Shown: piece by piece, positions 5,134 through 33,923 of the stretch
Layout: every line of letters starts with the position of its first letter
Numbering within the stretch: the stretch's first letter is position 1
DNA from: Candidatus Omnitrophota bacterium
GTDB lineage: Bacteria; Omnitrophota; Gorgyraeia; Zapsychrales; JANLHA01
Length of the DNA: 64,000 bases
Direction of reading: 5' to 3'
NCBI GenBank assembly: GCA_020632535.1
Contig: JACKFJ010000002.1
Location: forward strand, 254,331-318,330
Program-made: the position numbers and the translations under genes
The notes under the pieces: generated by a model
Seen by the model: the letters and a program-made list of their open reading frames with translations, nothing else
The model's database searches: none
What the model was told of the DNA's origin: nothing

Positions 5134-5160
5134 GATTTAACAAGATACAAGGAGGGTTCT

Positions 5161-16038: not shown

Positions 16039-16109
16039 TGCCCTGTCGTCTAATGGTAGGACATGAGATTCTGGATCTCAGTATTTTGGTTCGAATCCAA
16101 GCGGGGCAG
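16039..16109 (+). tRNA. tRNA-Gln (CUG)
   Basis: Acceptor TGCCCTG/CGGGGCA, anticodon loop TTCTGGA, T-arm GGTTCGAATCC; no encoded CCA. Confidence 0.88.
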
Positions 16110-16302: not shown

Positions 16303-16500
16303 ATGAGTAAAATTAAAGCATATGTTTTTGGTTGCCTGACGATTCTTGTTATCATATTGATATGGCAGAATACAGAGGTTGTAACAATTAAAATATTGTT
16401 CTGGCAAGTTAGCATGTCGAGAGCTATTTTGATTCCTAGTATTTTTCTTTGTGGAGTTGTTTTTGGGTATCTTGCCAGCAAAAAACCTGTCTTAAAATAA
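16303..16500 (+). CDS. small membrane protein, LapA-domain (DUF1049)-like
   Basis: 65 aa with two hydrophobic helices flanking QNTEVVTIKILFWQVSMS, the pattern of the LapA/DUF1049 domain. Confidence 0.5.
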   Translation: MSKIKAYVFGCLTILVIILIWQNTEVVTIKILFWQVSMSRAILIPSIFLCGVVFGYLASKKPVLK

Positions 16501-16599: not shown

Positions 16600-16627
16600 T
16601 TGACAAAAGACTCCGGAATTATATAAT
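16600..16627 (+). promoter_or_regulatory. sigma70-type promoter of the Rrf2 gene
   Basis: TTGACA (16600-16605), 16-nt spacer, TATAAT (16622-16627). Confidence 0.55.
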
Positions 16628-16653
16628 CACATGCAGGTATCCTATTTATAAAT

Positions 16654-17049
16654 ATGTTAACTAAAACCAGCAAACAAGTTATTAATGCGCTAGTTAAATT
16701 AGCTAAGCTCGAAGAGGGTGAATGGCTGGGGGTCGGTGCGATTGCGCAGCAGATCAAGGTGCCGCAGAATTATTTAGGTAAAATGTTGCAGAGCTTTGTT
16801 GTCGCGGGTCTTGTGGTGTCGCAAAAGGGATTGGGCGGGGGCTTTCGATTAGCTAAGGATCCTAAAGAAATTAGTCTTTTTGATGTTGTTGAACCTATTG
16901 AAAATGTGGATGTTTGGTCAGGATGTGCTTTAGGTTTAAAGAAGTGCTCGGATAAGAATCCATGTGCTGTCCATTTTAAGTGGAAGACGGTTAAAGAACA
17001 GTATTTAAGTTTTTTAAAAAATACAACGATAGCGAGCTTGGATAAGTAG
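16654..17049 (+). CDS. Rrf2-family transcriptional regulator with three-Cys cluster site (NsrR/IscR-like)
   Basis: wHTH N-terminus, GGFRLAKDPKEISLFDVVEPIE, Cys motif C-x6-C-x5-C (CALGLKKCSDKNPC). Confidence 0.8.
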   Translation: MLTKTSKQVINALVKLAKLEEGEWLGVGAIAQQIKVPQNYLGKMLQSFVVAGLVVSQKGLGGGFRLAKDPKEISLFDVVEPIENVDVWSGCALGLKKCSDKNPCAVHFKWKTVKEQYLSFLKNTTIASLDK

Positions 17050-17227
17050 CTTATTAAAACGAAGCTGCTTTTTGTTTTCACTATAATAGTATATTCGCAT
17101 GTCATTATTCGATTGTTAAAAGGAAAAGTGTGTACTCTGCTCCACATTGTCAGATTGGAGATTATTTTGAGTTTTTTGAATTTGTCCTTAGAGGTAAAAA
17201 GGTTTTGCGTTTAATTGTGTGTTGAAT

Positions 17228-18052
17228 ATGAAAAAAAATTTTAAATATATTTATGGTCCCGTAGAGTCTTGGCGAATGGGAAAATCCTTGGGGATTGATC
17301 CTCTTTCGGATTCAGTCAAAATTTGCAATTTGAATTGTCTTTATTGTCAGTTGGGAAAGACATCGATTTTGACACAAGAACAAAAAGAGTATGTTCCATC
17401 CGAAGAAATTATTAATGAGATTAGAGAATTCTTTCATGATGTTCAGTTGATTGATTCATCTATCACAAGGGATATTGATTATTTGACATTTTCGGGTCGA
17501 GGTGAGCCGACGCTGGCCAGCAATTTAGGAGAAATGATTCGAGGTATCCGTAAAATAAGAGATGAAAAGATAGCGGTTATTACCAATTCAACAACGTTAC
17601 ATTTGGCTGATACTCAAAGTGATTTATTGCTGGCAGATTTGGTGGTCGCCAAGTTAGACGCGTGCGATGAGTTGTCGTTTTCTCAAATTGATAAAGCGAT
17701 GGTGGGAATAAGTTTTGAAAGTGCTTTGAGAGGAATTAAAAATTTTAAAAAAAATTATCAAGGTAAGCTTGCCATCCAAATTATGTTTGTTGAAGAAAAT
17801 CGAAAGTACGCATTAAGGATTGCCGATATTGTTCGTGAAATTAATGCTGACGAAATTCAAATTAATACGCCGGTGCGACCTTCAGCAGCTCATCCCATTG
17901 ATAGAAATGGGATGCTGGCGATTAAAGAATTGTTTAATGGAATGCCTACTCTCAGTTTTTATGATAGTAGTTGCAAAGAAACTGTTCCCTACAACATAAA
18001 AGATACGATCAAACGACACGGAAATTATAAAAGTACTTTGTCGGTTTCTTAA
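17228..18052 (+). CDS. radical SAM protein of unknown function
   Basis: YGPVESWRMGKSLGIDP followed by CNLNCLYCQLG (CxxxCxxC), then GEPTL. The start could also be the GTG at 17219. Confidence 0.75.
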   Translation: MKKNFKYIYGPVESWRMGKSLGIDPLSDSVKICNLNCLYCQLGKTSILTQEQKEYVPSEEIINEIREFFHDVQLIDSSITRDIDYLTFSGRGEPTLASNLGEMIRGIRKIRDEKIAVITNSTTLHLADTQSDLLLADLVVAKLDACDELSFSQIDKAMVGISFESALRGIKNFKKNYQGKLAIQIMFVEENRKYALRIADIVREINADEIQINTPVRPSAAHPIDRNGMLAIKELFNGMPTLSFYDSSCKETVPYNIKDTIKRHGNYKSTLSVS

Positions 18053-18069
18053 CATTCTATTTGAGGAGG

Positions 18070-20184
18070 ATGATGATGCAAGCAACAAAGACGTTAACCA
18101 AAGTCATTAAAAGAAACGGCAGTGAAGAATCATTTAATCCTTCAAAGATTGCCGCGGCCATTCGTAAAGCCGGCGAGGCGACAGCAGAATTTGATAGTTT
18201 GGTTTCTGACAAGCTCACTATGCGTGTGCTTAATCTTTTGCATCAGCTCGATAAGGAAAGTCAACCTACGGTTGAAGAAATTCAAGACATTGTTGAAGAA
18301 GTTTTGCTGACCTCACCTTATCGAAAAACAGCCAAAGCATATATTCTTTATCGTCAACAGCATTCGCAGATCCGTGAAATCGCCGACAAATTTAATACAG
18401 ATTTGGTGTCGCGATATTTGAATAAAGAGGATTGGAAGGTTAGCGAGAACAGCAATATGGCTTTTTCCCTACAGGGTTTAAATCACTATATCTCCTCGGA
18501 GGTTAGTCAAACTTATTGGTTAAATAAAGTTTATCCGCAAGAAATAAGAGAAGCGCATTTAAAGGGCGATTTCCATATTCATGATTTGGGGCTTGTTAGT
18601 GTTTATTGCGTTGGGTGGGATTTGCAGGATTTATTATTGGAAGGTTTTAAGGGTGTTTCCGGAAAAATGGAATCCGCTCCGGCCAAACATTTGCGCAGTG
18701 CCTTGGGGCAAATTATCAATTTCTTTTATACTCTTCAGGGAGAGGCCGCAGGAGCACAGGCTTTTTCTAATTTTGATACGTTGTTGGCCCCATTTATTCG
18801 CTATGACGGTTTAACTTATATTGAAGTTAAGCAGGCACTGCAGGAGTTTGTTTTTAATGTCAATGTCCCGACGCGCGTTGGGTTTCAAACGCCTTTTACA
18901 AATGTTACGATGGATTTAAAGCCACCGTCTTATTATTTGGATCAGGGCGTCGTTGTTGGAGGAAAGATTCAGAGTGAAACGTACAAAGAATTTCAAGCGG
19001 AACAGGATATTTTTAATAAAGCCTTTTTGGAAGTGATGTTGGAAGGTGATGCTAAGGGTCGTGTTTTTACCTTTCCAATACCAACTTATAATGTAACAAA
19101 AGATTTTGAATGGGATAATCCGAACCTAGATCTTTTATGGGAAATGACAGCAAAGTACGGGATTCCCTATTTTTCAAATTTTATTAATTCTGATATGAAT
19201 CCCGACGACGCAAGGAGCATGTGTTGCCGTTTGCGTCTGGACAATAGGGAATTGCGTAGTCGTGGGGGCGGATTGTTTGGAGCTACTCCTTTGACAGGAT
19301 CGATAGGAGTTGTGACGATTAATATGCCCAGAATTGCTTGTCTATCTCAAACAAAAGAGGAGTTTTATCAGCGATTAGAGCGACAAATGTTGTTAGCTAA
19401 AGAAAGCTTAGAGATTAAAAGAAAAATACTTGAAAAATTTACAGAGCAGGATCTTTACCCGTATATAAAGTTTTACTTACGTAAAATTAAACAACGCTTT
19501 GATCAATATTGGAAAAATCATTTTGCTACCATTGGCCTCTTGGGGATGAATGAAGCCTGTTTAAATTTGATAGGGGAGGATATCGCTTCCGCCAAAGGTC
19601 ATGACTTTGCGGTTCAGGTTTTAGATTTTATGAGAGAGAAATTGTTGAAGTTTCAGGAGGAGACAGGAAATATTTATAATCTTGAAGCAACACCGGCGGA
19701 AGGATGCTCGTATCGTTTAGCTAAAAAAGATAAGGCCAATTACCCTGCGATTATATGTGCGAATGAAGCGGAATATACGCAAGGACATGAGCCATTTTAT
19801 ACCAATTCAACACATCTTCCGGTTGGTTATTCTGACGATATTTTTGAAGTTTTAGAATTGCAAGATGGGCTACAGACAAAGTATACGGGAGGAACGGTTC
19901 TCCACGGCTTTGTTGGTGAGAAGATTCATAATATTGAAGGGCTTAAACAGTTGGTTAAAATTATTTGTCAAAAGTTCCGGCTGCCTTATTTTACCATTAC
20001 TCCGACTTTTAGTGTTTGTCCGAATTGTGGTTATCGAGCGGGAGAACATCCTTTGTGTGACAAATGTCAGACGGGATGTGAAATTTATTCACGGGTTGTC
20101 GGATATCTTCGTCCTGTTCAGCAATGGAATAAGGGGAAGAAGGAAGAATTTAAAGAACGGCAAACATACAAAATATGCGCATAG
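18070..20184 (+). CDS. nrdD: anaerobic ribonucleoside-triphosphate reductase (class III)
   Basis: N-terminal ATP-cone (VIKRNGSEESFNPSKI), C-terminal Zn ribbon CPNCGY...CDKC, glycyl-radical motif RVVGYLRP. GAGGAGG precedes three consecutive ATGs (18070/18073/18076). Confidence 0.92.
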   Translation: MMMQATKTLTKVIKRNGSEESFNPSKIAAAIRKAGEATAEFDSLVSDKLTMRVLNLLHQLDKESQPTVEEIQDIVEEVLLTSPYRKTAKAYILYRQQHSQIREIADKFNTDLVSRYLNKEDWKVSENSNMAFSLQGLNHYISSEVSQTYWLNKVYPQEIREAHLKGDFHIHDLGLVSVYCVGWDLQDLLLEGFKGVSGKMESAPAKHLRSALGQIINFFYTLQGEAAGAQAFSNFDTLLAPFIRYDGLTYIEVKQALQEFVFNVNVPTRVGFQTPFTNVTMDLKPPSYYLDQGVVVGGKIQSETYKEFQAEQDIFNKAFLEVMLEGDAKGRVFTFPIPTYNVTKDFEWDNPNLDLLWEMTAKYGIPYFSNFINSDMNPDDARSMCCRLRLDNRELRSRGGGLFGATPLTGSIGVVTINMPRIACLSQTKEEFYQRLERQMLLAKESLEIKRKILEKFTEQDLYPYIKFYLRKIKQRFDQYWKNHFATIGLLGMNEACLNLIGEDIASAKGHDFAVQVLDFMREKLLKFQEETGNIYNLEATPAEGCSYRLAKKDKANYPAIICANEAEYTQGHEPFYTNSTHLPVGYSDDIFEVLELQDGLQTKYTGGTVLHGFVGEKIHNIEGLKQLVKIICQKFRLPYFTITPTFSVCPNCGYRAGEHPLCDKCQTGCEIYSRVVGYLRPVQQWNKGKKEEFKERQTYKICA

Positions 20185-20873
20185 GAGGGCTGCAGGAATT
20201 TTCCTTAATTGATTATCCCGGGAAAGTCGCGTGTATTGTTTTTACTCAAGGATGTAATTTCCGATGTGGGTATTGTCACAATCCGGAATTGGTTATTCCA
20301 AGTCAATTTTCGCAGACAATTCCAGAGGAGCAGGTGTTTAATTTCCTACAAAATCGTCAGAAATATTTGCAGGGTGTTGTCGTGTCGGGGGGTGAACCGA
20401 CTTTGCAAAAGGACTTGGCAGTCTTTTTGGGTAAAATAAAACGATTGGGCTATTTGATTAAGCTTGATACCAACGGAAGTTATCCGGATCGACTAGAACA
20501 ATTGATTCATTTAAAGCTCGTCGATTATATTGCAATGGATGTTAAAACATCTTTAGGTCGTTACCAAGAAATGGTTGGTGTTCAGGTTGACGTAGAAAAA
20601 ATCAAGGCAAGTATTGATCTGATTATTCACTCAGGACTTCAACATGAGTTTCGCACAACAGTCGTAAAGCCTTTTTGTTCGTATGATGATTTGTCTAAAG
20701 TTCGGGATATGACTCAAGGATCGCAGCGGCATCGATTACAGAAGATAAGGCTGGATGATAAGCTTTTGGACAAAAGAATATTAACACAAAGTCAATATTC
20801 AGAATGTGAGTTTAGTCACCTTGAGCATATTTTTCAAATGAATCAGTCACATGAAAGAGAGGAATTATTATGA
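20175..20873 (+). CDS. nrdG: anaerobic ribonucleotide reductase activating protein (radical SAM)
   Basis: GCNFRCGYCHNPE, VVVSGGEPTLQ; 10-nt overlap with nrdD. Confidence 0.88.
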   Translation: MRIGGLQEFSLIDYPGKVACIVFTQGCNFRCGYCHNPELVIPSQFSQTIPEEQVFNFLQNRQKYLQGVVVSGGEPTLQKDLAVFLGKIKRLGYLIKLDTNGSYPDRLEQLIHLKLVDYIAMDVKTSLGRYQEMVGVQVDVEKIKASIDLIIHSGLQHEFRTTVVKPFCSYDDLSKVRDMTQGSQRHRLQKIRLDDKLLDKRILTQSQYSECEFSHLEHIFQMNQSHEREELL

Positions 20874-22006
20874 AAAGAGTCCTGCTCGTCGGGCTGTTTG
20901 TTGTTGGAATTACAACGATATCTTTTGCCGAGGCGCGTCAAACTTTGAATTTGCCAAAATTAAAAGAGAAAGCTGTTTTGACCTTTGCCCCGGAGGTGCC
21001 GCCACCTCTTACGCGCAAACAACCTGCCTTGGTTGTTGTGAATTTGCATTCCGGTAGAAAAGTTATTGAAATCAAGCCGGGTGTTAAATATGAATATTGG
21101 ACATTTAATGAAGGAGTTCCGGGTCCTTTCATTAGGGTCCGAGAAGGAGATACGATCGAAGTACATCATACCAGTTCCGATGAAATGGGAATGCCGCATA
21201 ATATTGATTTTCATGCGGTCACGGGCCCCGGAGGTGGCGCTCCTGTTACGACGGTGGTTAAGGGGGAAGAACGCATTGCTTGGTTTAAAATGTTAGAACC
21301 GGGTTTATATATTTATCATTGCGCTGCTCCACCTGTTATGGATCATATTGCAAATGGAATGTATGGGCTTATTTTAGTTGAACCGAAAAAGGGGTTGCCA
21401 AAAGTTGATCGGGAATATTATGTCATGCAACATGAAGTGTACGCTGTTAATCCCGCCGCGGTTAAAATCAACGCGCCGGATGTTATGAAAGGTCATAATA
21501 TGGCGGAAGAAAAGGAAGATGATCTTTGGGGCGATGAAGTTGGAGAAGAGGCAGGGCCAGTAATGTTGCAATACTCACATCAGAATGGGTTAGATGAACA
21601 TCCGATGTTTGTGCTGTTTAATGGCACCGTGGGATCTTTGATGAAAGATGGATCATTAAAGGCGAAAGTCGGAGAAAGAATTCGTGTTTATTTTGGTAAC
21701 ATTGGGCCTAATCTTATTTCTTCTTTTCATATTATTGGAACGATTTTTAAAAATGTTTATCGGGAGGGTGATTTGATTAGTCCGCCTGCTCGTTCTGTAC
21801 AAACAACCTTGGTCCCAGCTGGTGGGGCGACAGTCGTTGACATTGATTTGTCGGTACCGGGGACATTTACTCTTGTAGATCACGCGATCTTTCGTATTGA
21901 GAAAGGGGCTGTGGGGTATCTCGAGGTGGAAGGTAAACCCAATTATGACATTTATGCTTCAGACCAAGATCCGGTTTTCTGCCCGGGGTGCTTGGTTCAT
22001 CCATAA
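20870..22006 (+). CDS. nirK: copper-containing nitrite reductase
   Basis: Sec signal peptide. MPHNIDFHAVTGPGGGA (T1/T2 Cu His), YIYHCAAPPVMDHIANGMYG (His-Cys, C-x8-H-x4-M). ATGA overlap with nrdG. Confidence 0.9.
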   Translation: MKRVLLVGLFVVGITTISFAEARQTLNLPKLKEKAVLTFAPEVPPPLTRKQPALVVVNLHSGRKVIEIKPGVKYEYWTFNEGVPGPFIRVREGDTIEVHHTSSDEMGMPHNIDFHAVTGPGGGAPVTTVVKGEERIAWFKMLEPGLYIYHCAAPPVMDHIANGMYGLILVEPKKGLPKVDREYYVMQHEVYAVNPAAVKINAPDVMKGHNMAEEKEDDLWGDEVGEEAGPVMLQYSHQNGLDEHPMFVLFNGTVGSLMKDGSLKAKVGERIRVYFGNIGPNLISSFHIIGTIFKNVYREGDLISPPARSVQTTLVPAGGATVVDIDLSVPGTFTLVDHAIFRIEKGAVGYLEVEGKPNYDIYASDQDPVFCPGCLVHP

Positions 22007-22020
22007 TGTAGGAGTATGAC

Positions 22021-22206
22021 ATGATAAAGGTGACAGCATTACAAGAATTACTTAAGTCCGACGAGACCGAATTAAAAAAGCTCGATATTGAACAATTGCG
22101 TGTCGCGTTGGGAACTTTTCGTTATTTTGCTAGAGTATTAGAAAGAGAAATTAATCGAAGGTGTGTCAGTCGGCCTTTCGGGAATATTGAAGAAAACAAA
22201 GAATAA
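22021..22206 (+). CDS. hypothetical protein (61 aa)
   Basis: ORF packed between nirK and nrdB on the same strand. No recognisable motif. Confidence 0.35.
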   Translation: MIKVTALQELLKSDETELKKLDIEQLRVALGTFRYFARVLEREINRRCVSRPFGNIEENKE

Positions 22207-22231
22207 TTAATAAGGAATGAGGAGTTTGGAT

Positions 22232-23278
22232 ATGGCGATATCGAAAATACAAATGACCAAAGAAAGAATCACCGCAGATAATAAGCGGATTCTCAATAAT
22301 GGTCGGATGGTTGATTGCAATCAATTAGTTCCTATTAAATATCAATGGGCGTGGAATTATTATTTAGATGGCTGCGCAAATCATTGGATGCCGACCGAAG
22401 TTCCGATGCAGCGCGATATTGAGCAGTGGAAAAATCCGGATGCGTTTACGGTGGATGAGAGACATCTTATTAAGCGTGTTTTAGGATTTTTTGCTACAGC
22501 GGAGTCTTTGGTTGGGAACAACCTTGTTTTGGCGGTTTATCGATGTATTGATAATCCGGAGTGTCGACAATATCTCTTGCGACAATCTTTTGAAGAAGCC
22601 ATTCATATTCACGCTTTTCAATACATTGTTCAGTCCTTATCTTTAGATGAAGGTGAAATGTTTAATATGTATCGGGAAGTGGAAGCTATTTATAACAAAG
22701 ATGAATACGCTATGAGTTGTACCAACAGTGTTCTTGATCCAAGCCTTGATACAAACACGAAGGAAGGCTTGCAGACACTATTAAAGAATATGGTTGGATT
22801 ATATGTTATTACTGAAGGAATTTTCTTTTATGGGGGATTTGTAACCATGCTTTCCTTTGGTCGTCAGAATCGGCTTCCCGGGACATGTGAACAAATTCAA
22901 TATATTCTTCGTGATGAGAGTATTCATATGAATTTCGGAATTGAATTGATAAACGCCATCAGAGATGAAAATCCTGGGGCATGGGATAAGGATTTTGAGC
23001 AGGAGATTATAAAGTTTATTATTAACGCGGTTGAATTAGAATGTGCGTATTGTAAAGAATGTTTGCCGCAGGGTGTTTTGGGATTAAACACGAATTTGTT
23101 GCGAGAATATGTCCAATATCTTGCGGATCGTCGATTCGAAAGATTGCGCTTACCTAAACAATATGGTTCTAACAATCCTTTTCCATGGATGAGCGAAGTC
23201 ATTGATTTAAAAAAGGAAAAAAACTTTTTTGAAACACGTGTGACGGAGTATCAGACTGGAGGGGCATTAGAGTGGTAA
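22232..23278 (+). CDS. nrdB: ribonucleotide reductase small subunit, class Ic-like (Phe at the radical-Tyr position)
   Basis: [61 protein letters not shown]-terminal [14 protein letters not shown] at 22232 follows GAGGAG; ATG at 22217 is also possible. Confidence 0.88.
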
Positions 23279-23293
23279 GGAAGGTCTGCCGGG

Positions 23294-23587
23294 ATGAAGC
23301 CTGATATTAAAACAGCCATGCAGCATTTGATAAAGGAAGCTCGAGCAAAGATCCCGTTTAATCTTTCTTTTAGCGGTCATTGTGAGGGGCGTTGTGATGA
23401 GTGCCCAGAAAAATTGATCGAAGTTTTGGATATTGATTTATCTGATTGGGATTTGCGTTTGAAACGTGGGTATGATGTAAAGTCAGAGGATCTCTACAAG
23501 TTGGCTAGAGAGTGTAAGGAGATTTACGCTATTTTACAGGATAAAGGATTTGTAAAAAAAGAAGAAAGCGGCGGTAGGGATTTGTAA
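23294..23587 (+). CDS. hypothetical Cys-motif protein (97 aa)
   Basis: CEGRCDECPEK (C-x3-C-x2-C). Same strand, 15 nt after nrdB and 16 nt before nnrS. Confidence 0.4.
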   Translation: MKPDIKTAMQHLIKEARAKIPFNLSFSGHCEGRCDECPEKLIEVLDIDLSDWDLRLKRGYDVKSEDLYKLARECKEIYAILQDKGFVKKEESGGRDL

Positions 23588-23603
23588 AAATGGAAAGGTT
23601 ACT

Positions 23604-24785
23604 ATGGTTTTATTAAAACAAAATTGTCCGGTAATTTTACAAACAGGTTTTCGTATATTTTTTTTGGGGGCGGCGGTTTATGCAGTTGTGTCGATGATTT
23701 TTTGGAAGATTTTTTATGTGATGGGCAAGAATATTTTTGTAGCTATGCCTTTGACGGTGTGGCATGGGCATGAGATGGTGTTTGGATTTACAATGGCGGT
23801 TATAGCTGGTTTTTTATTGACCGCGGTTATGAATTGGACTGGGATTCAAACATTAAGCGGAGCACCCTTGTTGGCATTATTTTTATTGTGGGCTAGCGCG
23901 CGTGTTTTGGCATTTATGCCAGCGTCATTTCCGGTGTGGCCTATGGCATTTTGTGATACGGCTTTTATTGTTTTTCTTTCCATTGCTATTATGAAACCCA
24001 TCATTGCGACCAAACAATGGAAACAATCGGCTGTTTTTTCAAAACTTCTTTTGCTTCTTGTTGCCGGCATTATTTTTTATATTGGTTTATTGCAGTCGGA
24101 TCTCATTGTCGAGCGGAAGGCTCTTCGCTTTGCAATTTATATGATACTTAGCTTGGTTTTGACTATTAGTCGTAGAATTTTGCCATTTTTTATTGAAAAA
24201 GGTGTCGGATACTCTGTGAATCTACGCAATAATTTTACTATCGACATGTCCAGCCTTGTTTTGCTTATTGCTTTTTCTATAATTGATGTGTTTTGGCCAC
24301 AGCGGATTATTGTTGCGATATTGAGTTTGTCATTATTTTTTATTCATGCTTGGCGACTTAGCGGATGGTATACATCAGGTATTTGGAAAAAACCACTTTT
24401 ATGGATATTGTTTATTGGATATGGATTTATTATCGTTGGGTTTTTGTTAAAGGCCATGGCGGCATTAGGTCAGCGTCCCGATGATTCGGCAATGCATGCT
24501 TTTACAGCTGGCGGTATTGGAGTTTTTATTATTGGAATGATGGCAAGGGTTTCGTGGGGACACACCGGACGTAATATTGCGGAAGCGCCTTCTCAGCTTC
24601 CGTTGATTTTTATACCAGTTGTAATTGGTGCATGTATTCGTGTTTTTTTCCCAATTTTTAATGAGTCGAGCTATATCTTATGGATAGCGCTTAGTCAAAT
24701 TCTTTGGATTGTTGGGTTTTCACTTTACATTTATTATTATTATAAAGTTTTAGCATTTGCTCGTGTGGATGGGAAATGGGGATAG
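23604..24785 (+). CDS. nnrS: NnrS-family membrane protein (NO-stress associated)
   Basis: FRIFFLGAA..., WHGHEMVFGFTMAVIAGFLLTAVMNWTG signature, about 12 TM helices. Confidence 0.85.
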   Translation: MVLLKQNCPVILQTGFRIFFLGAAVYAVVSMIFWKIFYVMGKNIFVAMPLTVWHGHEMVFGFTMAVIAGFLLTAVMNWTGIQTLSGAPLLALFLLWASARVLAFMPASFPVWPMAFCDTAFIVFLSIAIMKPIIATKQWKQSAVFSKLLLLLVAGIIFYIGLLQSDLIVERKALRFAIYMILSLVLTISRRILPFFIEKGVGYSVNLRNNFTIDMSSLVLLIAFSIIDVFWPQRIIVAILSLSLFFIHAWRLSGWYTSGIWKKPLLWILFIGYGFIIVGFLLKAMAALGQRPDDSAMHAFTAGGIGVFIIGMMARVSWGHTGRNIAEAPSQLPLIFIPVVIGACIRVFFPIFNESSYILWIALSQILWIVGFSLYIYYYYKVLAFARVDGKWG

Positions 24786-24932: not shown

Positions 24933-25985
24933 ATGTTTATGAAGCTGCATAAAGAAGGTGTGTTGCGTGGGTTAGGAGGAGTTGCGCTTCTTTCGGTGTT
25001 GATTGTTGTTGGTTCACGTAAACTGGTTTATTTTGACGCCGCTTTAATTCCCTATTTGATTGCCACGATATTCGCAATTTTTGGAAGCATTTACCGTTAT
25101 TCAGTTTGGCTGTCACGTCCACCAACGAATATTTTGTGGAAGCGCAGTTTAAAGTTGATATTTAGTAAATATTTTTTCGCGAATGCCGGATTGGTGATCA
25201 AGGCTTTCTTTGAAAATATGCTTTTACAAAAATTTATTGGTCGTCGCAGTCCATATCGTTGGATTATGCATTTTCTTTTAGCTTGGGGATGTGTGTTGGG
25301 TTTTGCGGTCACATTTCCATTGGTATTTGGATGGTTGCATTTTTCTAATCCTCCGGGCCATGAACATATGTATCAGCTTTACATCTTTGGTTTTCCCGCA
25401 ATGATTTTTGATCCTTATGGTTTTATTGGTTATGCTTTTTTTAACATGCTTAATCTTTGCTCAATTATGATCATTATTGGCACGGTCATGGCCTTTTCTC
25501 GTCGTCTGATGCACCCGGGCGACATTACTACTCAATCGTTTGCACATGATTTGCTTCCGCTTTTGATTTTATTTGGTGTTGCAGTTTCTGGACTTTTCTT
25601 GACTTTCAGCACACATTATCTTGGAGGACATCAGTATCGCATTTTATCAACAATTCATTGTTGGACAGTCGTCGCCTTTTTGGTTTATTTACCATTTGGT
25701 AAGTTTTTTCATATTTTTCAACGAGCTTCGCAGATGGGGGCGGAACTTTATATTCATGAGAAACAGGAAGGACAGCTTGCTATTTGTCCCAAAACGGGTG
25801 AAGGATTTACTAGTCAGGTTCAGAAGGATGATGTTAAAAGTATTTTGCGTGAGTTGGGTTTTGAGTTTGAAGTTGCGCATGAAAAGTTTTCTGTTCAGGA
25901 TTTGAGTCCGCAAGCTCGACGGCAACTATTGATGACCACGCAGCACAAACGATTAAAGGGAAAATTTGATATTGTTAGAGAGTAA
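24933..25985 (+). CDS. polytopic membrane protein, NarI/DsrM/HdrE-like putative b-type cytochrome quinol dehydrogenase
   Basis: About 7 hydrophobic helices with conserved-looking His (RWIMHFLL, FAHDLLP, IHCWTVV). C-terminal LPFGKFFHIFQR motif is typical of NarI-type subunits. Soluble tail of about 80 aa. Confidence 0.45.
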   Translation: MFMKLHKEGVLRGLGGVALLSVLIVVGSRKLVYFDAALIPYLIATIFAIFGSIYRYSVWLSRPPTNILWKRSLKLIFSKYFFANAGLVIKAFFENMLLQKFIGRRSPYRWIMHFLLAWGCVLGFAVTFPLVFGWLHFSNPPGHEHMYQLYIFGFPAMIFDPYGFIGYAFFNMLNLCSIMIIIGTVMAFSRRLMHPGDITTQSFAHDLLPLLILFGVAVSGLFLTFSTHYLGGHQYRILSTIHCWTVVAFLVYLPFGKFFHIFQRASQMGAELYIHEKQEGQLAICPKTGEGFTSQVQKDDVKSILRELGFEFEVAHEKFSVQDLSPQARRQLLMTTQHKRLKGKFDIVRE

Positions 25986-26003
25986 GGAATATGGAGAAAT
26001 ATT

Positions 26004-28193
26004 ATGGCGAAATTACCCATTGCTGAAGAATTAATTATAGAAAAATTTGGTCCGCATTTGAAACATCAGCCGCCCGGCGGATGGGATCAGGCTGGAGAGC
26101 CAGATCGTCGCGTCAAAACGCATTGCTGTTTTTGCGGACAACAGTGTGGAATTATTTTAAAGGTCAAAGATAATGCTGTTGTGGGTTTTGACCCATGGGA
26201 ATCCTTTCCTTTTAATAAAGGAAAATTGTGTCCCAAGGGCGTCAAACGTTATATGCAAGGATCGCACCCTGACCGATTATTATATCCTCTTGAAAATCGC
26301 AGTGGTGAAGGTTATGTGCGGACATCTTGGGACGCGGCATATAGTAAAACTGTAGCTGAGATTCAAAGGATTCAGTCTCAATACGGGAAAGACAGTTTTG
26401 CGGTTTTGTCGGGCGTTTCTCTAAGCAATGAAAAGTCTTATCTTATTGGGAAATTTGCTCGGGTCGCGTTAGAAACAGCCAATTTGGATTATAACGGACG
26501 TTTGTGCATGGTTTCTGCTGGAGCAGGAAATAAAAAAGCATTTGGTCTTGACCGAGCTGGGAACTCATGGGCTGATTTGTTGGAGACGGATCTTATTTTA
26601 TGTGCTGGAACAAATGTTTCGGAATGCGCGCCCATTACAACAGATTATATTTGGAAAGCGCGGGACACTCGTGGAGCAAAACTTATTGTGGTAGATCCAC
26701 GAATTACCCCGATCGCGAGGACTGCGGATTTGATTTTGCCTGTTCGTCCGGGAACGGATTCACATTTATTTAATACACTTTTAAATCTTATTATTCAGGC
26801 GGGTGATATTGATGAAAACTTTATTAAGGAACATACTGCAGGTTTTGAAGACGTTAAAAAAACGGTAGCGAAATATACTGTGGAAGAATGTGAGCGAATT
26901 ACTGGCGTTCCAGCCAAAAGTATACGCACGGCTGCGGAATGGTGGGGTAAAGCTAAGCGAAGTTTTCTTTTACACGCAAGGGGTATTGAGCATCACACTA
27001 AAGGCGTTGATAATGTTTTATCATGCATTAATTTTGTATTGGCAACGGGGCGTATTGGTAAAGTTGGTTGTGGATATGCAACAATAACGGGACAGGGTAA
27101 TGGTCAAGGCGGACGCGAACACGGGCATAAGTGTGATCAACTTCCCGGGAATCGAGACATTACAAATCCAGAGCATCGTCAATATATTTCGAAAGTTTGG
27201 GGAATTGAAGAAAAAGATTTGCCGGGGAAAGGGTTGTCTGCGCAGGAAATATTGAATGAAATTCATGCTGGGAAAATTAAAGGGTTATTGAGTATTTGTT
27301 TTAATCCTCTGGTGAGTTTGCCAGATTCAAAATTTACCCGTGAAGCTTTAGAAAAACTGGAGTTTTACGCTAATATTGATTTCTTTCTTAGCGAAACAGC
27401 CCAACACGCCGATATTATTTTGCCCGGATCGCTTCATGAGGAAGATGAAGGAACGTCGACTTCGGCGGAGGGACGCGTTATTCGTCTTCAAAAAGCAGTT
27501 AATCCACCCGGTGAAGCAAAAGTTGATTGGGAAATATTTCTTGAGATTGCCCGTCGATTAGGTAAGGGAAAATATTTTGATCATTTTAAGAACCCTGAAG
27601 ATATGTTTAATGAATTGCGCGTAGCTTCAAAGGGTGGGACAGCGGATTATTATGGGATTACGTACGATAAAATTGACAAAAATATGGGTGTATTTTGGCC
27701 TTGTCCTTCATTAGATCATCCGGGGACACCGCGATTATTTGAAAATGGGAAATTTTATCATCCGGATGGCAAGGCTCACTTTAATGTGGTGGAATATAAG
27801 CCTTCTGCCGATATTATTAATGAGGAATATCCGATTTATTTGACGACGGGTCGCGTGATTTATCAATATTTATCAGGGACCCAAACCCGTCGAATAGGAT
27901 TTTTGTCAGATCAATGTCCCGACCCATATGTAGAAATGCATCCTTTGTTGGCAGAAAAATATGGAATAAAAGACGGCGATCGTGTTCGCATTACTTCTCG
28001 TCGGGGTACGGTAGAATTAAACGCAAAAGTTGTAAAAACGATACGTCCTGATACGGTTTTTGTTCCGTATCACTGGGCTGGGAAAAAATCGATTAATCGT
28101 TTAACGCAACGCGCGCTTGATCCAATTTCAAAAATTCCAGAATTTAAAATGAGCGCCGTGCGTATCGAGAAAGTTAGTGAAAATTCTTTATGA
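26004..28193 (+). CDS. molybdopterin (Mo-bisPGD) oxidoreductase catalytic subunit, Nas/NarB/Nap-like putative nitrate reductase
   Basis: N-terminal 4Fe-4S motif CCFCGQQCG...C, Cys Mo-ligand context [12 protein letters not shown] (formate dehydrogenases have Sec/Cys-His instead), [14 protein letters not shown]-terminal FVPYHWAG...[19 protein letters not shown]. No twin-arginine signal. Confidence 0.75.
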
Positions 28194-28801
28194 GCACATG
28201 GTTAGAAGAAAATGATCTGTTTATAGATCCCCAACGTTGTATTGGATGTCGCGCGTGTGAAGCAGCTTGCGCGGAGTGTGATACGCATCGTGGCGTGCCA
28301 ATGATTCACTTAGAACCCTTGGATCGTGCAGAGTCAGTTAAGACTGGCCCAACATTATGCATGCATTGTGATGATCCAGCCTGTGCGGCGGTGTGTCCAG
28401 CAGATGCGATTAAGCGTACAGACGATGGAGTTGTTCAATCATCTCTTAAGCCGCGATGTATTGGGTGTTCGAATTGTCAAATTGCTTGTCCGTTTGGCGT
28501 GCCCAAAGTATATCGTGCGCGGGCGCAAATGAATAAATGCGATATGTGTTATGACCGAACGTCAGTGGGATTAAAACCAATGTGTGCGACGGTTTGTCCG
28601 TCGGAAGCGATTTTCTTCGGGCCAAAATCAGTTGTTGAAACTCAACGTAAGAATAAAGCGAATAATCAGTTTATTTTCGGAAAACAAAAAATCACAACTA
28701 AGGTTCATATCATGATGGATACGTCCGAAGATCCGGTCAATATGGATATTGTGGATTTTATGAGTGTGGGTATTGAAGATTCACAGCCGTGGGAAATGTG
28801 A
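28190..28801 (+). CDS. four-cluster [4Fe-4S] ferredoxin subunit (DmsB/NarH/PsrB-type)
   Basis: Four Cys groups: [41 protein letters not shown]...CATVCP. ATGA overlap with the Mo subunit. Confidence 0.8.
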
Positions 28802-28813
28802 AAGGGTAGGATT

Positions 28814-29350
28814 ATGCAAGATCCAATCGATAAACGTTTAAAGAAGAAATTTACGGATGTTCCTAAGTGGGCTGAAGATTTTCCCCTTGATCAGGGAAAA
28901 GATTCCAACGTTTCCCGTCGAGACTTTGTTCGTTATCTCGCGTTGGTTTCGTTGGGGTTTTTTACCGGGACATCGACCATATTTTTACGGTCTTTGTTTA
29001 AAACAGCGCCAGTTTACACTCAACGAATGAAAATTATTGATCGCGATGATTTAAAAATTGGCGAATCGTATGTGTTTGGAATTCCCGGAATAAAAGAGCA
29101 GGCGATTTTACTTCGGTTGGGTGAAGATCAATTTGTTGCTTTTGGCCAAAAATGTACTCATTTGCAGTGTCCCGTGATTTGGAAAAAGGAAGAAAAGATG
29201 TTGTTTTGCCCTTGTCATAAAGGCGCATTTAATGGAACAACGGGTGATGTGCTTTATGGTCCTCCTGAGCGGCCACTTCCTAAGCTAAAGATTGAAGTTG
29301 CTCCCGACGGTGTTTATTTTGTCGGAATGGAGCGGGGGGAATTGGTATGA
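28814..29350 (+). CDS. membrane-anchored Rieske [2Fe-2S] protein
   Basis: CTHLQC-x14-CPCHKG (bc1/arsenite-oxidase-type motif including both disulfide Cys). SRRDFVRYLALVSLGFF is a Tat-like motif plus TM helix at aa 34-55. Confidence 0.8.
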   Translation: MQDPIDKRLKKKFTDVPKWAEDFPLDQGKDSNVSRRDFVRYLALVSLGFFTGTSTIFLRSLFKTAPVYTQRMKIIDRDDLKIGESYVFGIPGIKEQAILLRLGEDQFVAFGQKCTHLQCPVIWKKEEKMLFCPCHKGAFNGTTGDVLYGPPERPLPKLKIEVAPDGVYFVGMERGELV

Positions 29351-29616
29351 GATTTCAAAATAAAAAAGAGGAATTTGCCGCGACGGTAGAGACGGTTTGT
29401 TTGATTTTGAGTCTGGGCGCTGTGTTTTTACAAATTTGGGTTCTGATTTCAGCCATTGAAGCTTATCTGCAGGGAAAGTATGCTAACTTATTGCCTGCCG
29501 TGATTTTAAGTGGCATCGCGTTTGCGGGATGCGGTATGAGCGCATTATTGACGCGTATTGATTTTTTGAAAGGTATTACCGAAGGCCGCACCAAGACATA
29601 TCAAAAGAATTTATAA
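29347..29616 (+). CDS. small two-TM membrane protein
   Basis: 89 aa with two hydrophobic helices. Overlaps the Rieske stop (4 nt) and the narK start (1 nt). Confidence 0.5.
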   Translation: MRFQNKKEEFAATVETVCLILSLGAVFLQIWVLISAIEAYLQGKYANLLPAVILSGIAFAGCGMSALLTRIDFLKGITEGRTKTYQKNL

Positions 29617-30923
29617 TGAAAGGTTTAATTATGGCAAAGATTCGCGGAACCCCAGACTTGGGGGGCATGAGCGCAACTATGGGATTTTATATTGGCTTTG
29701 CGGCGGTTTCATTGTTCGGGATTACCGCGAGTAAAATTAAAGAAGTCATGCCATTGAGCCCTATTTTACTTGCCTTATTAATTTCAATTCCAGCTTTATC
29801 AGGCTCATTGCTTAGAATTCCTTTTGCGGCTTGGACGGATACAACGGGCGGTCGTAAGCCTTTTTTAGTGCTTTTGATTTTATCAATTTTGGGAATGTTG
29901 GGCTTGTATATTGTGATGAGCCGTTTTTATCCAAATAATTTAACAATAAATTTTTATCCGATTTTAATTGTTTTGGGAATTCTCTGTGGGTGCGGTATTG
30001 CTACGTTTTCGCCGGGGATCGGACAAGTTTCTTATTGGTTTCCGCAAAGTAAGCAGGGAACAGTTTTGGGTTTATATGCAGGATTAGGAAATTTGGCTCC
30101 CGGGATGTTTGCATTGCTTCTGCCGGTTGCCATGCAAAATTTAGGGATGGCGAACACCTATTTAGCGTGGTTGATTTTTTTGGGTATTGGAACAATACTG
30201 TATTGGATGTTTGGCCGCAATGCTTGGTATTTTCAGCTTGTTGAGCAAGGGATGACGCCGGAGGCGGCTAAAAAAGAAGCGCAGGAACAATATCATCAGG
30301 AAATTTTTCCGAAGGGTAATATCAAACAAAGTTTAATTGTTTCCGCGCAGAATTGGAAAACGTGGTCGCTTTTTGCGGTTTATTTTACGACCTTTGGTGG
30401 ATTTATCGCGCTTACAGCTTGGTTTCCAACATATTGGAATTCTTATTTTGGAATGCCGATTGTAATGGCTGGCATGATGACGGCAGCTTATTCGATTCTT
30501 GCATCGCTTATGCGCGTGGTGGGTGGACAAATTGCAGATGTTTTTGGTGGTGAGCGATCCTTAATTTTTTCTACGTGTTTACTTCTTATTGGATCAATTA
30601 TTATGATGGGATCATCAGGAGTATTGACCTTTGCTATTGTCGGGGTTTTATTTTTAGCCATTGGTATGGGAATGGCTAATGCCGCTGTTTTCAAACTTGT
30701 TCCTCAGGAAATTCCGGAGGCGGTCGGTGGAGCTGCGGGGTGGATTGGTGGATTGGGCGCTTTTGGGGGCTTTGTCATTCCTCCACTATTGGGAATCAGC
30801 GTCAGTATGTTTGGAACTACAGGTTATAGCAAGGGATTTGGTCTTTTTATAATTTTGTCAATTGTGTCATTAATGATAAGTTTTATTCTAAAAATCAGTC
30901 GACATGCAAAAGCAAAATCATGA
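29616..30923 (+). CDS. narK: MFS nitrate/nitrite transporter (NNP family)
   Basis: 12 TM helices. Nitrate-signature-like motifs YAGLGNLAPG and AAGWIGGLGAFGGFVIP. Confidence 0.75.
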   Translation: MKGLIMAKIRGTPDLGGMSATMGFYIGFAAVSLFGITASKIKEVMPLSPILLALLISIPALSGSLLRIPFAAWTDTTGGRKPFLVLLILSILGMLGLYIVMSRFYPNNLTINFYPILIVLGILCGCGIATFSPGIGQVSYWFPQSKQGTVLGLYAGLGNLAPGMFALLLPVAMQNLGMANTYLAWLIFLGIGTILYWMFGRNAWYFQLVEQGMTPEAAKKEAQEQYHQEIFPKGNIKQSLIVSAQNWKTWSLFAVYFTTFGGFIALTAWFPTYWNSYFGMPIVMAGMMTAAYSILASLMRVVGGQIADVFGGERSLIFSTCLLLIGSIIMMGSSGVLTFAIVGVLFLAIGMGMANAAVFKLVPQEIPEAVGGAAGWIGGLGAFGGFVIPPLLGISVSMFGTTGYSKGFGLFIILSIVSLMISFILKISRHAKAKS

Positions 30924-31398
30924 ATCTAAGGTTGTTTCGATTAGTATCTCTAAGGGGGGGATTCCTAAGCTCCCGGTTAGTTCTATCCGCTTAACTTTTG
31001 CTGGTTTAGAAGGAGATGGACACAATCATGATAAACACAATTCACCTATACAGGCTGTGTGTATTCAAGATTTGGAGAAGCTAAAGGAACTTAATCAAGG
31101 TGGATACGCACTAAGTCCGGGACTTGCGGGCGAAAATTTAACCGTTGAGAATCTCCACGTCAATGATCTTCCTCTGGGGACGGTACTTCAGTTTTCCGGC
31201 GGTGTTATCTTAGAAATTTCAAAAATCCGAAAGCCCTGTTATGTTATGGACGCGATACATCCTAAGTTAAAGGACGATGCAGTCGGACGGCATGGAATGT
31301 ATGCGCGAGTTATTAAAGAAGGACAATTAACCGTCGGAGAAGTTATCGAAGTTAAGAAGTGTCCACCATTGCGTGCGGGGACTTATGGATCAGGTTAA
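30904..31398 (+). CDS. MOSC-domain protein
   Basis: GLEGDGHNHDKH, PGLAGENLTVENL, LEISKIRKPC (conserved Cys). 20-nt overlap with narK. Confidence 0.75.
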   Translation: MQKQNHESKVVSISISKGGIPKLPVSSIRLTFAGLEGDGHNHDKHNSPIQAVCIQDLEKLKELNQGGYALSPGLAGENLTVENLHVNDLPLGTVLQFSGGVILEISKIRKPCYVMDAIHPKLKDDAVGRHGMYARVIKEGQLTVGEVIEVKKCPPLRAGTYGSG

Positions 31399-32479
31399 GT
31401 CACTTCAGAAAAAAGCAATTCAATTAGAACTTAAGCGATCATTAAAAGAATTATCCGATATTAAGTTTGCCCTCGATGCCTCTTCTATTGTCGCGATTGC
31501 TGATGCCAGCGGCAAAATCACTTATGTGAATGACAAGTTTTGTGAGATTTCCCAATATTCCCGTGATGAACTGATGGGTCAGGATCATCGAATTATTAAT
31601 TCTGGATATCACCCTAAAGAATTTATTCGAGATCTTTGGCGTACGATTGCCGGCGGGAAAGTTTGGAAGGGAGAAATAAGAAATCGCGCTAAAGACGGAA
31701 CGTATTATTGGGTGGAGACAACGATTGTTCCTTTTTTAAACGAAAGAAAAAAGCCGTATCAATATGTAGCTATTCGTAATGAAATAACAAAGCGGAAAGA
31801 AATGGAAGAAGCCTTGAAACAATTCTCACAAAGAATTATTCAGGCTCAAGAACAAGAACGTGAACGTATTTCTCGAGAAATTCACGATGATCTTGGTCAA
31901 TCGCTGGTCATATTTAAGATTTTGTTACAATCGGTTCTTTTGGCGCCACAGTTTGATTCAAAAAAGAAGGGTCTTTTTGTCGAGAGATTGGTTAAGGATA
32001 TCGATCGAATTATTGAGAAGACCAGAGATCTGACTTCTGCATTGCGTCCTTCGACTCTCGAGGTTTTGGGTTTAACAACAGCTTTGAAAGTATTGGTTGA
32101 ACAAATTAAACGGGAAAGTTTAAAGATAAAATTCTGCCATGATGATTTGGACGGGATAACTTTTAAAGGCGATCCCATTAATTTTTATCGAATTATTCAG
32201 GAGGCTTTAACAAATATCGTAAAGCATGCCAAAGCTTCGAAAGTTGAGATGCACATAAGGATTACGAAAAACATTTTATCTTTGAGCATAAAAGATGACG
32301 GTAGGGGATTTTCCTATTCGCAAAAAATTCCTTCTCGGCAGCAGATTAAGGGAATTGGACTTTCAACAATGAAAGAAAGAGCACAGTTGTTAAAAGGAGA
32401 ATTAGAAATCACTTCTGGTGTTCGGCAGGGCACGACAATCAAACTTAGCATTCCTATTATTAAAAAGAAATCATTATGA
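31385..32479 (+). CDS. soluble PAS sensor histidine kinase (HisKA_3 type)
   Basis: PAS domain (IVAIADASGKITYVNDKFCEISQYSRDELMGQDHRII...KDGTYYWVETT), H-box REIHDDLGQSL, HATPase GIGLSTMKERA. No TM segment. Confidence 0.85.
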   Translation: MDQVKSLQKKAIQLELKRSLKELSDIKFALDASSIVAIADASGKITYVNDKFCEISQYSRDELMGQDHRIINSGYHPKEFIRDLWRTIAGGKVWKGEIRNRAKDGTYYWVETTIVPFLNERKKPYQYVAIRNEITKRKEMEEALKQFSQRIIQAQEQERERISREIHDDLGQSLVIFKILLQSVLLAPQFDSKKKGLFVERLVKDIDRIIEKTRDLTSALRPSTLEVLGLTTALKVLVEQIKRESLKIKFCHDDLDGITFKGDPINFYRIIQEALTNIVKHAKASKVEMHIRITKNILSLSIKDDGRGFSYSQKIPSRQQIKGIGLSTMKERAQLLKGELEITSGVRQGTTIKLSIPIIKKKSL

Positions 32480-33123
32480 AGTCTTTTCAAAGAATTGTTT
32501 TAGTGGATGATCATAAGATTTTAAGAGAAGGTCTTAAAAGCCTTATCGAGAAGGATGAGGCTTTTAAAGTCGTTGGACAAGCTAAGGATGGCAATGAACT
32601 CCTTATTCTTTTAAAGACTATGAAGTGTGATTTAATTGTCTTGGATTTAGCGATGCCGAATAGGGACGGAATACAGTCTATCAAAGAAGTCAAAGAGCAA
32701 TTTCCAAGAGTGAAGATTCTTATATTGACTATGCAAAAGGATCAAGAACACTTTCGGCATGCCATGGCTCTGGGGGCATCGGGGTATGTTCTTAAAGACG
32801 ATGCTTATGAACAGCTTATGATGGCTATTAAAATTATTCTAAAAGGCAGGGTATTTGTTTCACCCGAGATATCAAAACTTCTCACTGATTATTATGTTCG
32901 TTCTATGGATGAAGCCGAATCTTCTTCTCCCGGAATTTTAACGAAGCGCGAACAACAAATTTTAAAGTTGATCGCAAAAGGTTTAGCTAATAAAAATATT
33001 GCGGCAAAACTCAAATTAAGTATTCGAACAGTTGAAACTCATCGAGCCAACCTCACCCATAAATTAGGCATCAAAAGTGCCGCAAGTTTAGCAAGATACG
33101 CCATCACTAAGAATTTAATTTAA
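32476..33123 (+). CDS. NarL/LuxR-family response regulator
   Basis: Receiver (LVDDH...DLIVLDLAMP) plus C-terminal LuxR HTH (LTKREQQILKLIAKGLANKNIAAKL). ATGA overlap with the kinase gene. Confidence 0.9.
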   Translation: MKSFQRIVLVDDHKILREGLKSLIEKDEAFKVVGQAKDGNELLILLKTMKCDLIVLDLAMPNRDGIQSIKEVKEQFPRVKILILTMQKDQEHFRHAMALGASGYVLKDDAYEQLMMAIKIILKGRVFVSPEISKLLTDYYVRSMDEAESSSPGILTKREQQILKLIAKGLANKNIAAKLKLSIRTVETHRANLTHKLGIKSAASLARYAITKNLI

Positions 33124-33876: not shown

Positions 33877-33923
33877 TAGGGATTCAGTTTAACTAAACAA
33901 TTCCTTGGCGGAGGTGGTTTTTT

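Follow-up and report, generated by a model that had tools for sequence, protein, structure and literature searches.

NsrR-headed loci that carry the nitrite reductase gene nirK (aniA) occur in Nitrosomonas and Neisseria. In Pseudomonas aeruginosa the ribonucleotide reductase (RNR) gene nrdJ is induced by Anr and Dnr (PMC4860495), and the nitric oxide (NO)/hypoxia regulon of the Staphylococcus aureus SrrAB system comprises qoxABCD, cydAB, nrdDG, scdA and hmp (PMC3892780). A few cultured pathogens are known to couple their deoxynucleoside triphosphate (dNTP) supply to anaerobic or NO-responsive control, and do so at the level of the regulon. We describe here a locus of an uncultured phylum, widespread in groundwater and sediment, in which this coupling appears to be hard-wired in one operon with overlapping stop and start codons. 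The locus lies in a 64,000-nucleotide stretch (the window; all positions are counted from its first letter) of contig JACKFJ010000002.1 of a Candidatus Omnitrophota bacterium (assembly GCA_020632535.1, positions 254,331 to 318,330), and holds, in this order and all on the + strand, rrf2, a radical S-adenosylmethionine (rSAM) gene, nrdD, nrdG, nirK, orf61, nrdB, orf97 and nnrS. With about even confidence, we consider it a composite low-oxygen/nitrogen-oxide operon, in which a conserved RNR operon under Rrf2 control gained nirK and nnrS by insertion, and all are driven together across the oxic-anoxic transition.

The gene string begins with rrf2 (16654-17049), encoding an Fe-S-type Rrf2 regulator (PF02082, 100 bits), and continues with the rSAM gene (17228-18052), with nrdD (18076-20184) and nrdG (20175-20873) for a class III RNR and its radical-SAM activase, nirK (20870-22006) for an AniA-like copper nitrite reductase, orf61 (22021-22206), nrdB (22232-23278) for a class Ic RNR beta subunit, orf97 (23294-23587), and nnrS (23604-24785) for a haem/copper membrane protein of NO-stress regulons (PF05940, 324 bits). 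The identities proposed in a first-pass annotation, made from the sequence alone (anaerobic RNR, NirK, a radical-free-type NrdB, NnrS and an Rrf2-family protein), hold in domain and equivalog scans. From rSAM to nnrS the junctions measure +23, -10, -4, +14, +25, +15 and +16 nt. The 10-nt overlap is that of nrdD and nrdG (alternative nrdD starts lie at 18061 and 18070), and the 4-nt one is the ATGA shared by nrdG and nirK at 20870-20873, which the annotation had pointed out and which we confirm; an AGAGGA Shine-Dalgarno sequence precedes it. The 225-nt gap that it had left between 22006 and 22232 is filled by orf61. Its picture of a co-directional, tightly packed run is right as regards spacing, with at most 25 nt or an overlap at each junction from rSAM to nnrS. 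Co-directionality itself is no evidence for an operon, because nearly every gene between 1 and 48 kb of the window lies on the + strand, and the string does not end at nnrS: beyond a 147-nt spacer, tightly packed genes follow up to 33123. On the other side, the island is bounded by a tRNA gene (16039-16109) and a 65-residue membrane open reading frame (ORF; 16303-16500), both located after gltX and before the rrf2 promoter.

An assembly chimera is unlikely to be the source of this arrangement, because two other assemblies agree with the window. An independent Logan assembly of SRR12358676 (L001; related loci are designated in this way throughout) has the identical gene order, and a 331,533-bp contig of a sister metagenome-assembled genome (MAG) encodes an Rrf2 and a NrdB that are 96% and 97% identical to those of the window, as well as a NirK, an orf61 protein and a NarI-like protein that cluster with the window proteins at 90% identity.

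Comparison with related loci separates an older core from the nitrite reductase gene. Locus L096 has the order Rrf2-rSAM-NrdD-NrdG-orf62-NrdB, lacks nirK and has an ATGA shared by nrdG and orf62, and L099, which is syntenic with L096, has Rrf2-rSAM-orf58-NrdB-bacteriohemerythrin, with neither nrdDG nor nirK. The conserved core is rrf2-rSAM-(nrdDG)-orf61-nrdB, with nirK as a lineage-specific insertion. In our proposal nirK would have been inserted exactly between the nrdG stop and the orf61 start, with the 4-nt start/stop overlap kept, and orf97-nnrS would have come to stand after nrdB, with a block of nitrate reductase, NarK and NarL-type genes downstream.

The association between nitrite reductase and RNR genes is wider than this one insertion, and nirK or nrfA adjoins RNR genes, in varied orders, in four other Omnitrophota lineages. 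In L085, L086 and L092 the order is rSAM-NrdD-Nramp-Usp-NrdG-NnrS-NirK-orf84-NrdB-Crp/Fnr-hemerythrin. L094 has a molybdenum (Mo)-enzyme cluster followed by MFS-MOSC-MoaA-NirK-hemerythrin-NnrS-porin-orf66-NrdB and, further on, rSAM-NrdD-NrdG-kinase-regulator, and L087 has NarGH and, further on, NirK-NnrS-ZIP-rSAM-NrdJ-kinase-regulator. In L096 a bona fide ammonifying NrfHA pair lies directly 3' of nrdB. RNR genes were present in about 4 of the 10 Omnitrophota NirK neighbourhoods with sufficient flanks, as against a rough estimate of about 2% for a random 20-kb window. We read this as repeated or maintained linkage, because the loci differ in the order of their genes, in the class of RNR and in the type of nitrite reductase. 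None of the 80 NirK loci that a NirK profile scan found in GTDB species representatives has nrdD, nrdG or nrdB within 10 kb, nor has any of the approximately 76 NirK loci from other phyla; a metagenome scan gave only 7 loci. Among the 80 GTDB loci, 13 have an Rrf2 gene no more than a few kb away from nirK, and at least 6 have NnrS. NnrS also adjoins NirK in L085, L087, L088, L089 and L094, and in several other phyla, and a kinase/NarL-type regulator pair accompanies the nirK/nrd neighbourhood in L002, L082, L084, L087 and L094. In two MAG loci of Bdellovibrionales (L057 5113-7644 and L066 14694-17846), the class II RNR gene nrdJ lies 2.3-3.3 kb from nirK-nirV(FGE-sulfatase)-senC-nnrS, one of them with a Crp/Fnr regulator; this proximity is not clearly above chance.

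The regulatory signals lie around rrf2. A sigma-70 promoter at 16600-16627 (+ strand; TTGACA, 16-nt spacer, TATAAT) precedes the gene and is the sole 12/12 consensus match within 15.9-33.3 kb, and in L096, L098 and L104 rrf2 is likewise preceded by a TTGACA...TATAAT pair in this layout. A simple search of the spacers for inverted repeats, perfect or nearly so, gave nothing useful. When the rrf2-flanking spacers were compared among loci in which an orthologue heads the same operon, a palindrome, TAATCRCATGYGATTA, surfaced, which is perfect in L096 (TAATCACATGCGATTA). The window has two candidate operators of this type, both given on the + strand: operator 1, TAATCACATGCAGGTA (16624-16639; 3 mismatches to TAATCRCATGYGATTA), overlaps the -10 hexamer, and operator 2, TATTCGCATGTCATTA (17092-17107; 2 mismatches), lies in the rrf2-rSAM spacer just 3' of a TATAAT. 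The position equivalent to operator 1 is occupied in L096, by the perfect site, and in L104, by a 4-mismatch site at the -10, and sites like operator 2, with 2-3 mismatches, are found in the rrf2-rSAM spacers of L096 (6172), L099 (10418) and L104 (2103). In total, the 887 nt of rrf2-flanking spacers from four loci contain 5 sites with at most 3 mismatches, the pattern-defining site excluded, as against 0.02 expected in composition-matched shuffles; none of 5000 shuffles had 2 or more. Only about 5 other matches occur across about 326 kb. The first-pass annotation had proposed to look by footprinting for a conserved palindromic operator around rrf2, and a likely one is thus found, in four loci. 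The most likely targets of Rrf2 are its own promoter and the operon directly downstream.

Other signals were scarce. No intergenic spacer contains a terminator-like site, and the overall count of such sites is at chance level; the nnrS-narI spacer folds no better than shuffled sequence. The annotation had named terminators between nrdDG and nirK as evidence that would part them, and none is intergenic. We found no NrdR box (no match with up to 3 mismatches to ACACWATATATWGTGT) anywhere in 16-33 kb, and an Rfam scan of 15.9-33.3 kb, for riboswitches among other families, yielded only the tRNA at 16039-16109. A perfect FNR/Dnr box, TTGATTGCAATCAA, is present at 22311-22324 inside nrdB, and again in L085 (11514) and L094 (10080). 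We do not consider it regulatory, because it encodes conserved NrdB residues; it reflects coding conservation and is a trap for motif scans.

The regulator itself had been described as a three-Cys, NsrR-like protein. The cysteines are present (C91, C98 and C104), together with H107, and each of the four residues is at least 99% conserved among 120 homologues. The NsrR-like label is not supported: every Rrf2 equivalog scores far under its cutoff (SUF regulator 64.6 bits, IscR 57 against a TIGR02010 cutoff of 207, RirA 46, NsrR 42.5 against an NF008240 cutoff of 182, CymR 39; cutoffs span 110-275), the predicted ligands are Cys3His, and the nearest relatives head oxidase operons (see below). A second IscR model, NF008110, gives 41.8 bits for a cutoff of 275. 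The S. coelicolor NsrR structure 5N07 matches at E=1.5e-4 only, and the best PDB match is E. coli IscR (E=3e-8). Asp8, which we take to be the fourth cluster ligand of S. coelicolor NsrR (Cys3Asp), aligns with Lys/Gln, in a register drawn from the weak 5N07 alignment, and His107 is conserved. The positions C91/C98/C104/H107 match the Cys3His ligands of IscR, presumably C92, C98, C104 and H107. The window protein differs from IscR in falling below the equivalog cutoff and in its neighbours, which are RNR, nirK or oxidase genes with no isc or suf gene nearby. Its candidate operator, moreover, is unlike the type 1 and type 2 sites of IscR, and TAATCRCATGYGATTA is likewise unlike the gamma-proteobacterial NsrR half-site. 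Proteins of this kind are about 131 residues long and gave 235 matches at E <=1e-10, of which all named ones are from Omnitrophota. By these features the regulator is a distinct, new Omnitrophota subfamily with predicted IscR-type Cys3His Fe-S ligands.

The genes around this subfamily comprise terminal oxidases, anaerobic RNR, the class I beta subunit, hemerythrin and nitrite reductases. The closest Rrf2 relatives, 80% and 73% identical (L097 3665-8215 and L098 10001-14473), head aa3-type haem-copper oxidase operons, one of which has hemerythrin upstream. A relative that is 84% identical, in L104, heads Fer4-B12-rSAM-rSAM-NrdD (truncated)-MFS-MOSC. There, nrdD is cut to 211 residues (4769-5404) and MFS-MOSC follow directly, which looks like a deletion of the segment equivalent to window nrdG through the Rieske gene. 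L097 also contains a second, distant Rrf2 gene, which heads porin-nrfH-nrfA.

These neighbourhoods suggest an alternative, in which Rrf2 senses O2 or redox state on behalf of O2-dependent enzymes (the class Ic beta subunit and the aa3 oxidase, with bacteriohemerythrin nearby), nrdDG and nirK joined later as passengers, and NO is irrelevant. The minimal core of L099, with its bacteriohemerythrin, and the aa3-type oxidase operons of the nearest relatives fit this model. So does the Cys3His spacing, shared with IscR, the cluster occupancy of which responds to O2. However, TAATCRCATGYGATTA is absent from the oxidase loci L097 and L098, whose regulators are possibly paralogues with other signals, and the repeated joining of the anaerobic genes nrdDG and of nirK and nrfHA to the operon is hard to square with a purely oxygen-dependent induction. 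We regard this oxygen/redox model as possible, though unlikely.

In the composite operon that we favour, the promoter at 16600-16627 would initiate transcription, probably along with a second one located between rrf2 and rSAM, and each of the two carries a TAATCRCATGYGATTA-type operator. The Cys3His Fe-S Rrf2 protein would most likely act at these operators as a repressor that lets go once O2 or NO has modified its cluster. This would turn on, all at once, nitrite respiration by NirK, protection from NO stress by NnrS, the class I beta subunit and the O2-independent RNR (NrdDG). We infer co-transcription, repressor action and the nature of the signal from the gene and site layout, which is compatible alike with NO, with O2 or with both.

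Several observations weigh against this composite operon. Both the signal and the regulon of Rrf2 are uncertain, because its nearest relatives head aa3 oxidase operons that lack the operator. Co-expression of the O2-sensitive NrdD with an O2-requiring class Ic beta subunit is not obviously sensible. Promoter matches of 9/12 are weak and common throughout the region, and an internal promoter inside nrdG may drive nirK. The linked loci may share ancestry, and are then not fully independent, which would inflate the ratio of 4/10 to 2% given above. In addition, the nrdG-nirK junction stressed by the first-pass annotation is, in its exact form, confined to the window's species-level lineage; what recurs in relatives is the linkage of nitrite reductase and RNR genes. 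The junction is taken as lineage-specific because close NirK relatives, 80-91% identical, lie in other positions (L082, L102, L084, L093 and L015): between a response regulator and a PAS-GAF-GGDEF protein in L082 and L102, after a copper ATPase, with the Mo-enzyme cluster following, in L084, and before a porin in L093. In the window, the response regulator and the PAS-GAF-GGDEF protein are adjacent at 33270-35699, with no nirK between them, and are 65-69% and 44-63% identical to their orthologues in L082/L102. This shows that nirK has moved within the neighbourhood.

Such mobility would also be expected if the juxtaposition were neutral, with nirK carried about in a rearrangement-prone island and expressed from its own internal promoter or under the NarL-type system. 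This explanation agrees with the NarL-type kinase/regulator pair accompanying nirK at many loci and with the genes being nearly all co-directional anyway. On the other hand, with a 4-nt overlap and a good Shine-Dalgarno sequence, neither a terminator nor a classical promoter would fit between nrdG and nirK, and the excess of RNR genes near Omnitrophota nirK is seen with differing RNR classes and gene orders. We find a neutral origin quite improbable, and retain the composite operon as the preferred reading.

The RNR genes decide how far NO itself need be invoked. NrdD (ATP-cone plus NRDD; NF006126, 1072 bits against a cutoff of 548) has a C-terminal Zn ribbon (CPNC...CDKC) and the RVVGYL glycyl-radical motif, and NrdG passes its equivalog cutoff (TIGR02495, 218 against 131 bits) and carries the CxxxCxxC motif CNFRCGYC, as characteristic of class III enzymes and their activases, respectively. 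NrdB (NF005550, 570 bits) aligns over its full length with Chlamydia trachomatis R2c (1SYY; E=2.4e-136, approximately 66% identical as counted from the printed alignment). As in this class Ic beta subunit (R2c), it has Phe at the site of the radical Tyr (in the stretch that reads feeavhthtf in 1SYY), Glu as the first metal ligand (ATAESLV versus staeslv in 1SYY) and a C-terminal EYQ...W tail with the radical-transfer Tyr, which is near-invariant among homologues. By sequence it is a true class Ic beta subunit of the Phe type, presumably with a Mn/Fe cofactor. In contrast to the chlamydial system, the window nrdB does not adjoin nrdA; it is preceded by an approximately 60-residue gene and accompanied by an rSAM gene, and is embedded with nrdDG and nirK. 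Neither NrdA (Ribonuc_red_lg) nor NrdJ was found among the Pfam-scanned ORFs of the window, which were those between 3.3 and 42 kb and a part of those further on.

Phe occupies the radical-Tyr site in all 120 of the closest NrdB homologues, including one in a canonical nrdA-nrdB pair beside peroxiredoxin, superoxide dismutase and cytochrome bd (L095), and those in loci without nirK. Because of this, the window NrdB is no adaptation to nirK. Class Ic is the group's ordinary class I beta subunit, often separated from nrdA, and was not acquired for the sake of nirK. The radical-free-type NrdB of the first-pass annotation is thus confirmed as class Ic by the alignment with 1SYY, whereas its recruitment on account of self-made NO falls with the universality of Phe, and we caution that a Phe-type NrdB should not be taken for an adaptation of this kind.

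The annotation had gone further, and proposed a module that keeps dNTP synthesis running under self-generated NO, for which NO made by NirK would have selected the radical-free NrdB, NnrS and an NsrR-type sensor. R2c has indeed been proposed to be more NO-resistant than tyrosyl-radical R2 (PMC4118035). The cluster encodes NnrS, none of its annotated genes was identified as coding for an NO reductase, and two unrelated types of nitrite reductase, NirK and NrfA, adjoin an R2c gene. The proposal is weakened by the universality of R2c, Phe being found in L095 and in the nirK-less L096 and L099 alike, which argues against any recruitment for nirK. The core operon exists without nirK, and Rrf2 fails the NsrR tests run on its sequence. 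By our reasoning, moreover, NrdD stores a glycyl radical and is not radical-free, and it gives no sign of hardening against NO. Selection by self-made NO therefore seems doubtful to us as the origin of the locus, although the proposed NO resistance of R2c could make the phylum pre-adapted to such an arrangement.

The assignment of nirK is firm. The protein passes the NirK equivalog (TIGR02376, 309.6 bits for a cutoff of 296.3), matches the AniA structure 1KBV at E=1.7e-93 and carries a Sec signal peptide, and its Cu ligands and catalytic Asp/His are invariant (H110, D113, H115, H150, C151, H159, M164, H287 and H338). Its NCBI annotation goes no further than 'multicopper oxidase domain-containing protein'. 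We considered and rejected a recent acquisition of nirK by horizontal transfer, there being no compositional anomaly: GC is unremarkable, and GC at third codon positions (0.37) lies within the range of the neighbours. In the clade to which this NirK belongs (Omnitrophota, Elusimicrobia and PVC relatives), the two cupredoxin domains are separated by an acidic insert of about 40 residues (residues 194-234), and the protein ends in an invariant C-P-G-C-x-x-H tail (residues 371-377). This tail lies beyond the reach of the AniA alignment and may be an extra metal site.

The rSAM gene and orf61 are the least explained and potentially the most novel elements of the locus. The rSAM protein (274 residues, CNLNCLYCQ motif) matches PF04055 only, with no NCBIfam family or Pfam subfamily, and a PDB profile search gave just viperin and MoaA at E ~1e-3, and no solved relative. 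Its family comprises 388 50%-identity clusters at E <=1e-30, with the motifs YIYGPVxSWRxGxSLGxDPLS at the N-terminus and CNLxCxYCQ, and none of 10 sampled members has a curated-family match. In seven loci (window 17228-18052; L085 3227-4051; L087 13462-14280; L094 13127-13915; L096 6195-6989; L099 10441-11211; L104 3927-4769), the gene lies directly upstream of nrdD, nrdJ or orf-nrdB, whichever RNR class is present. The orf61 family (about 60 residues, helical; MIKxxxLxxLL...QLRxxLGxxRYxxRxLERExNxR) is found always immediately 5' of an nrdB that has no adjoining nrdA. The homologues aligned (L085 11188-11442; L094 9741-9941; L096 9788-9976; L099 11235-11411) are 43-61% identical, and the canonical nrdA-nrdB locus L095 has none. 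The protein encoded by orf97, which has no Pfam or NCBIfam match and no assigned function, has one homologue in L094 (19344-19610), 53% identical and with a conserved CEGRCDxCxEK (CxxxCxxC) motif.

It is conceivable, but in our view improbable, that the rSAM protein, the orf61 protein and an orphan class Ic NrdB, always under this Rrf2 and often with bacteriohemerythrin, make up a new RNR accessory system. Such a system may serve cofactor assembly (Mn/Fe), repair or activation at very low O2 or under NO, or the beta subunit may have a non-canonical partner. Given its position before nrdJ and nrdD as well, the rSAM protein may even be a general, previously unrecognised RNR helper. If the accessory system were real, nirK and nrfA would have been recruited since nitrogen-oxide chemistry bears on its function. 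Divalent-metal transporters stand within the RNR/nirK strings of relatives, Nramp with Usp between nrdD and nrdG (L085 6276-8043) and ZIP before rSAM-nrdJ (L087 12449-13258); these may relate to the supply of Mn/Fe for R2c.

Downstream of nnrS, and also on the + strand, lies a putative nitrate reductase cluster of unusual make-up (24933-29616), consisting of a NarI/HdrE-like membrane protein, a NasC-like Mo subunit, a 4Fe-4S subunit, a Rieske protein and an 89-residue membrane ORF. The NarI/HdrE-like protein has no Pfam match and is named 'MFS transporter' by NCBI. No twin-arginine signal was seen in the NasC-like subunit, and the Rieske protein has a twin-arginine-like SRRDFVRY motif. The same cluster is conserved beside nirK in L084 and L094. 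The cluster is followed on the same strand by genes for a NarK-family-like major facilitator superfamily (MFS) transporter (TIGR00886, 161.8 bits, below the cutoff) and a MOSC-domain protein (PF03473), together at 29616-31398, and by those of a PAS/HisKA_3 histidine kinase and a NarL/LuxR-type response regulator (31373-33123). The kinase is not an NreB-like 4-Cys PAS sensor, as it has one Cys in the PAS region.

Our literature searches turned up no report of nirK located within an nrd operon, none of nrdDG being controlled by Rrf2 or NsrR, and none of how RNR genes are organised in Omnitrophota, in line with the first-pass annotation, which knew of no such arrangement. What the locus offers for testing is a new Rrf2 subfamily with a defined candidate operator, a phylum-default class Ic subunit, and two unknown genes that track RNR genes of all three classes. 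The regulatory logic is already known, and it is the physical placement of nirK in an nrd operon that is new; the arrangement points to shared low-oxygen/nitrogen-oxide control and not to a new kind of machine. The Rrf2-nirK pairs of other phyla differ from it in having Rrf2 proteins only 29-39% identical to that of the window, with no nrd genes between regulator and nirK. The Anr/Dnr system of P. aeruginosa likewise ties O2-independent RNR genes to a circuit responsive to denitrification and NO (PMC4860495), but there the genes form separate operons under Crp/Fnr-type regulators, whereas here nirK lies inside the nrd operon, Rrf2 is at its head and a class Ic nrdB is included. The SrrAB regulon combines anaerobic RNR with a terminal oxidase, a di-iron protein and nitrogen-oxide enzymes, which parallels the aa3 oxidase, nrdDG, hemerythrin and nirK/nrfA genes found with the Omnitrophota Rrf2 subfamily; SrrAB, in contrast, is a two-component system that senses electron flow and acts on dispersed target operons, with no nitrite reductase joined to nrd.

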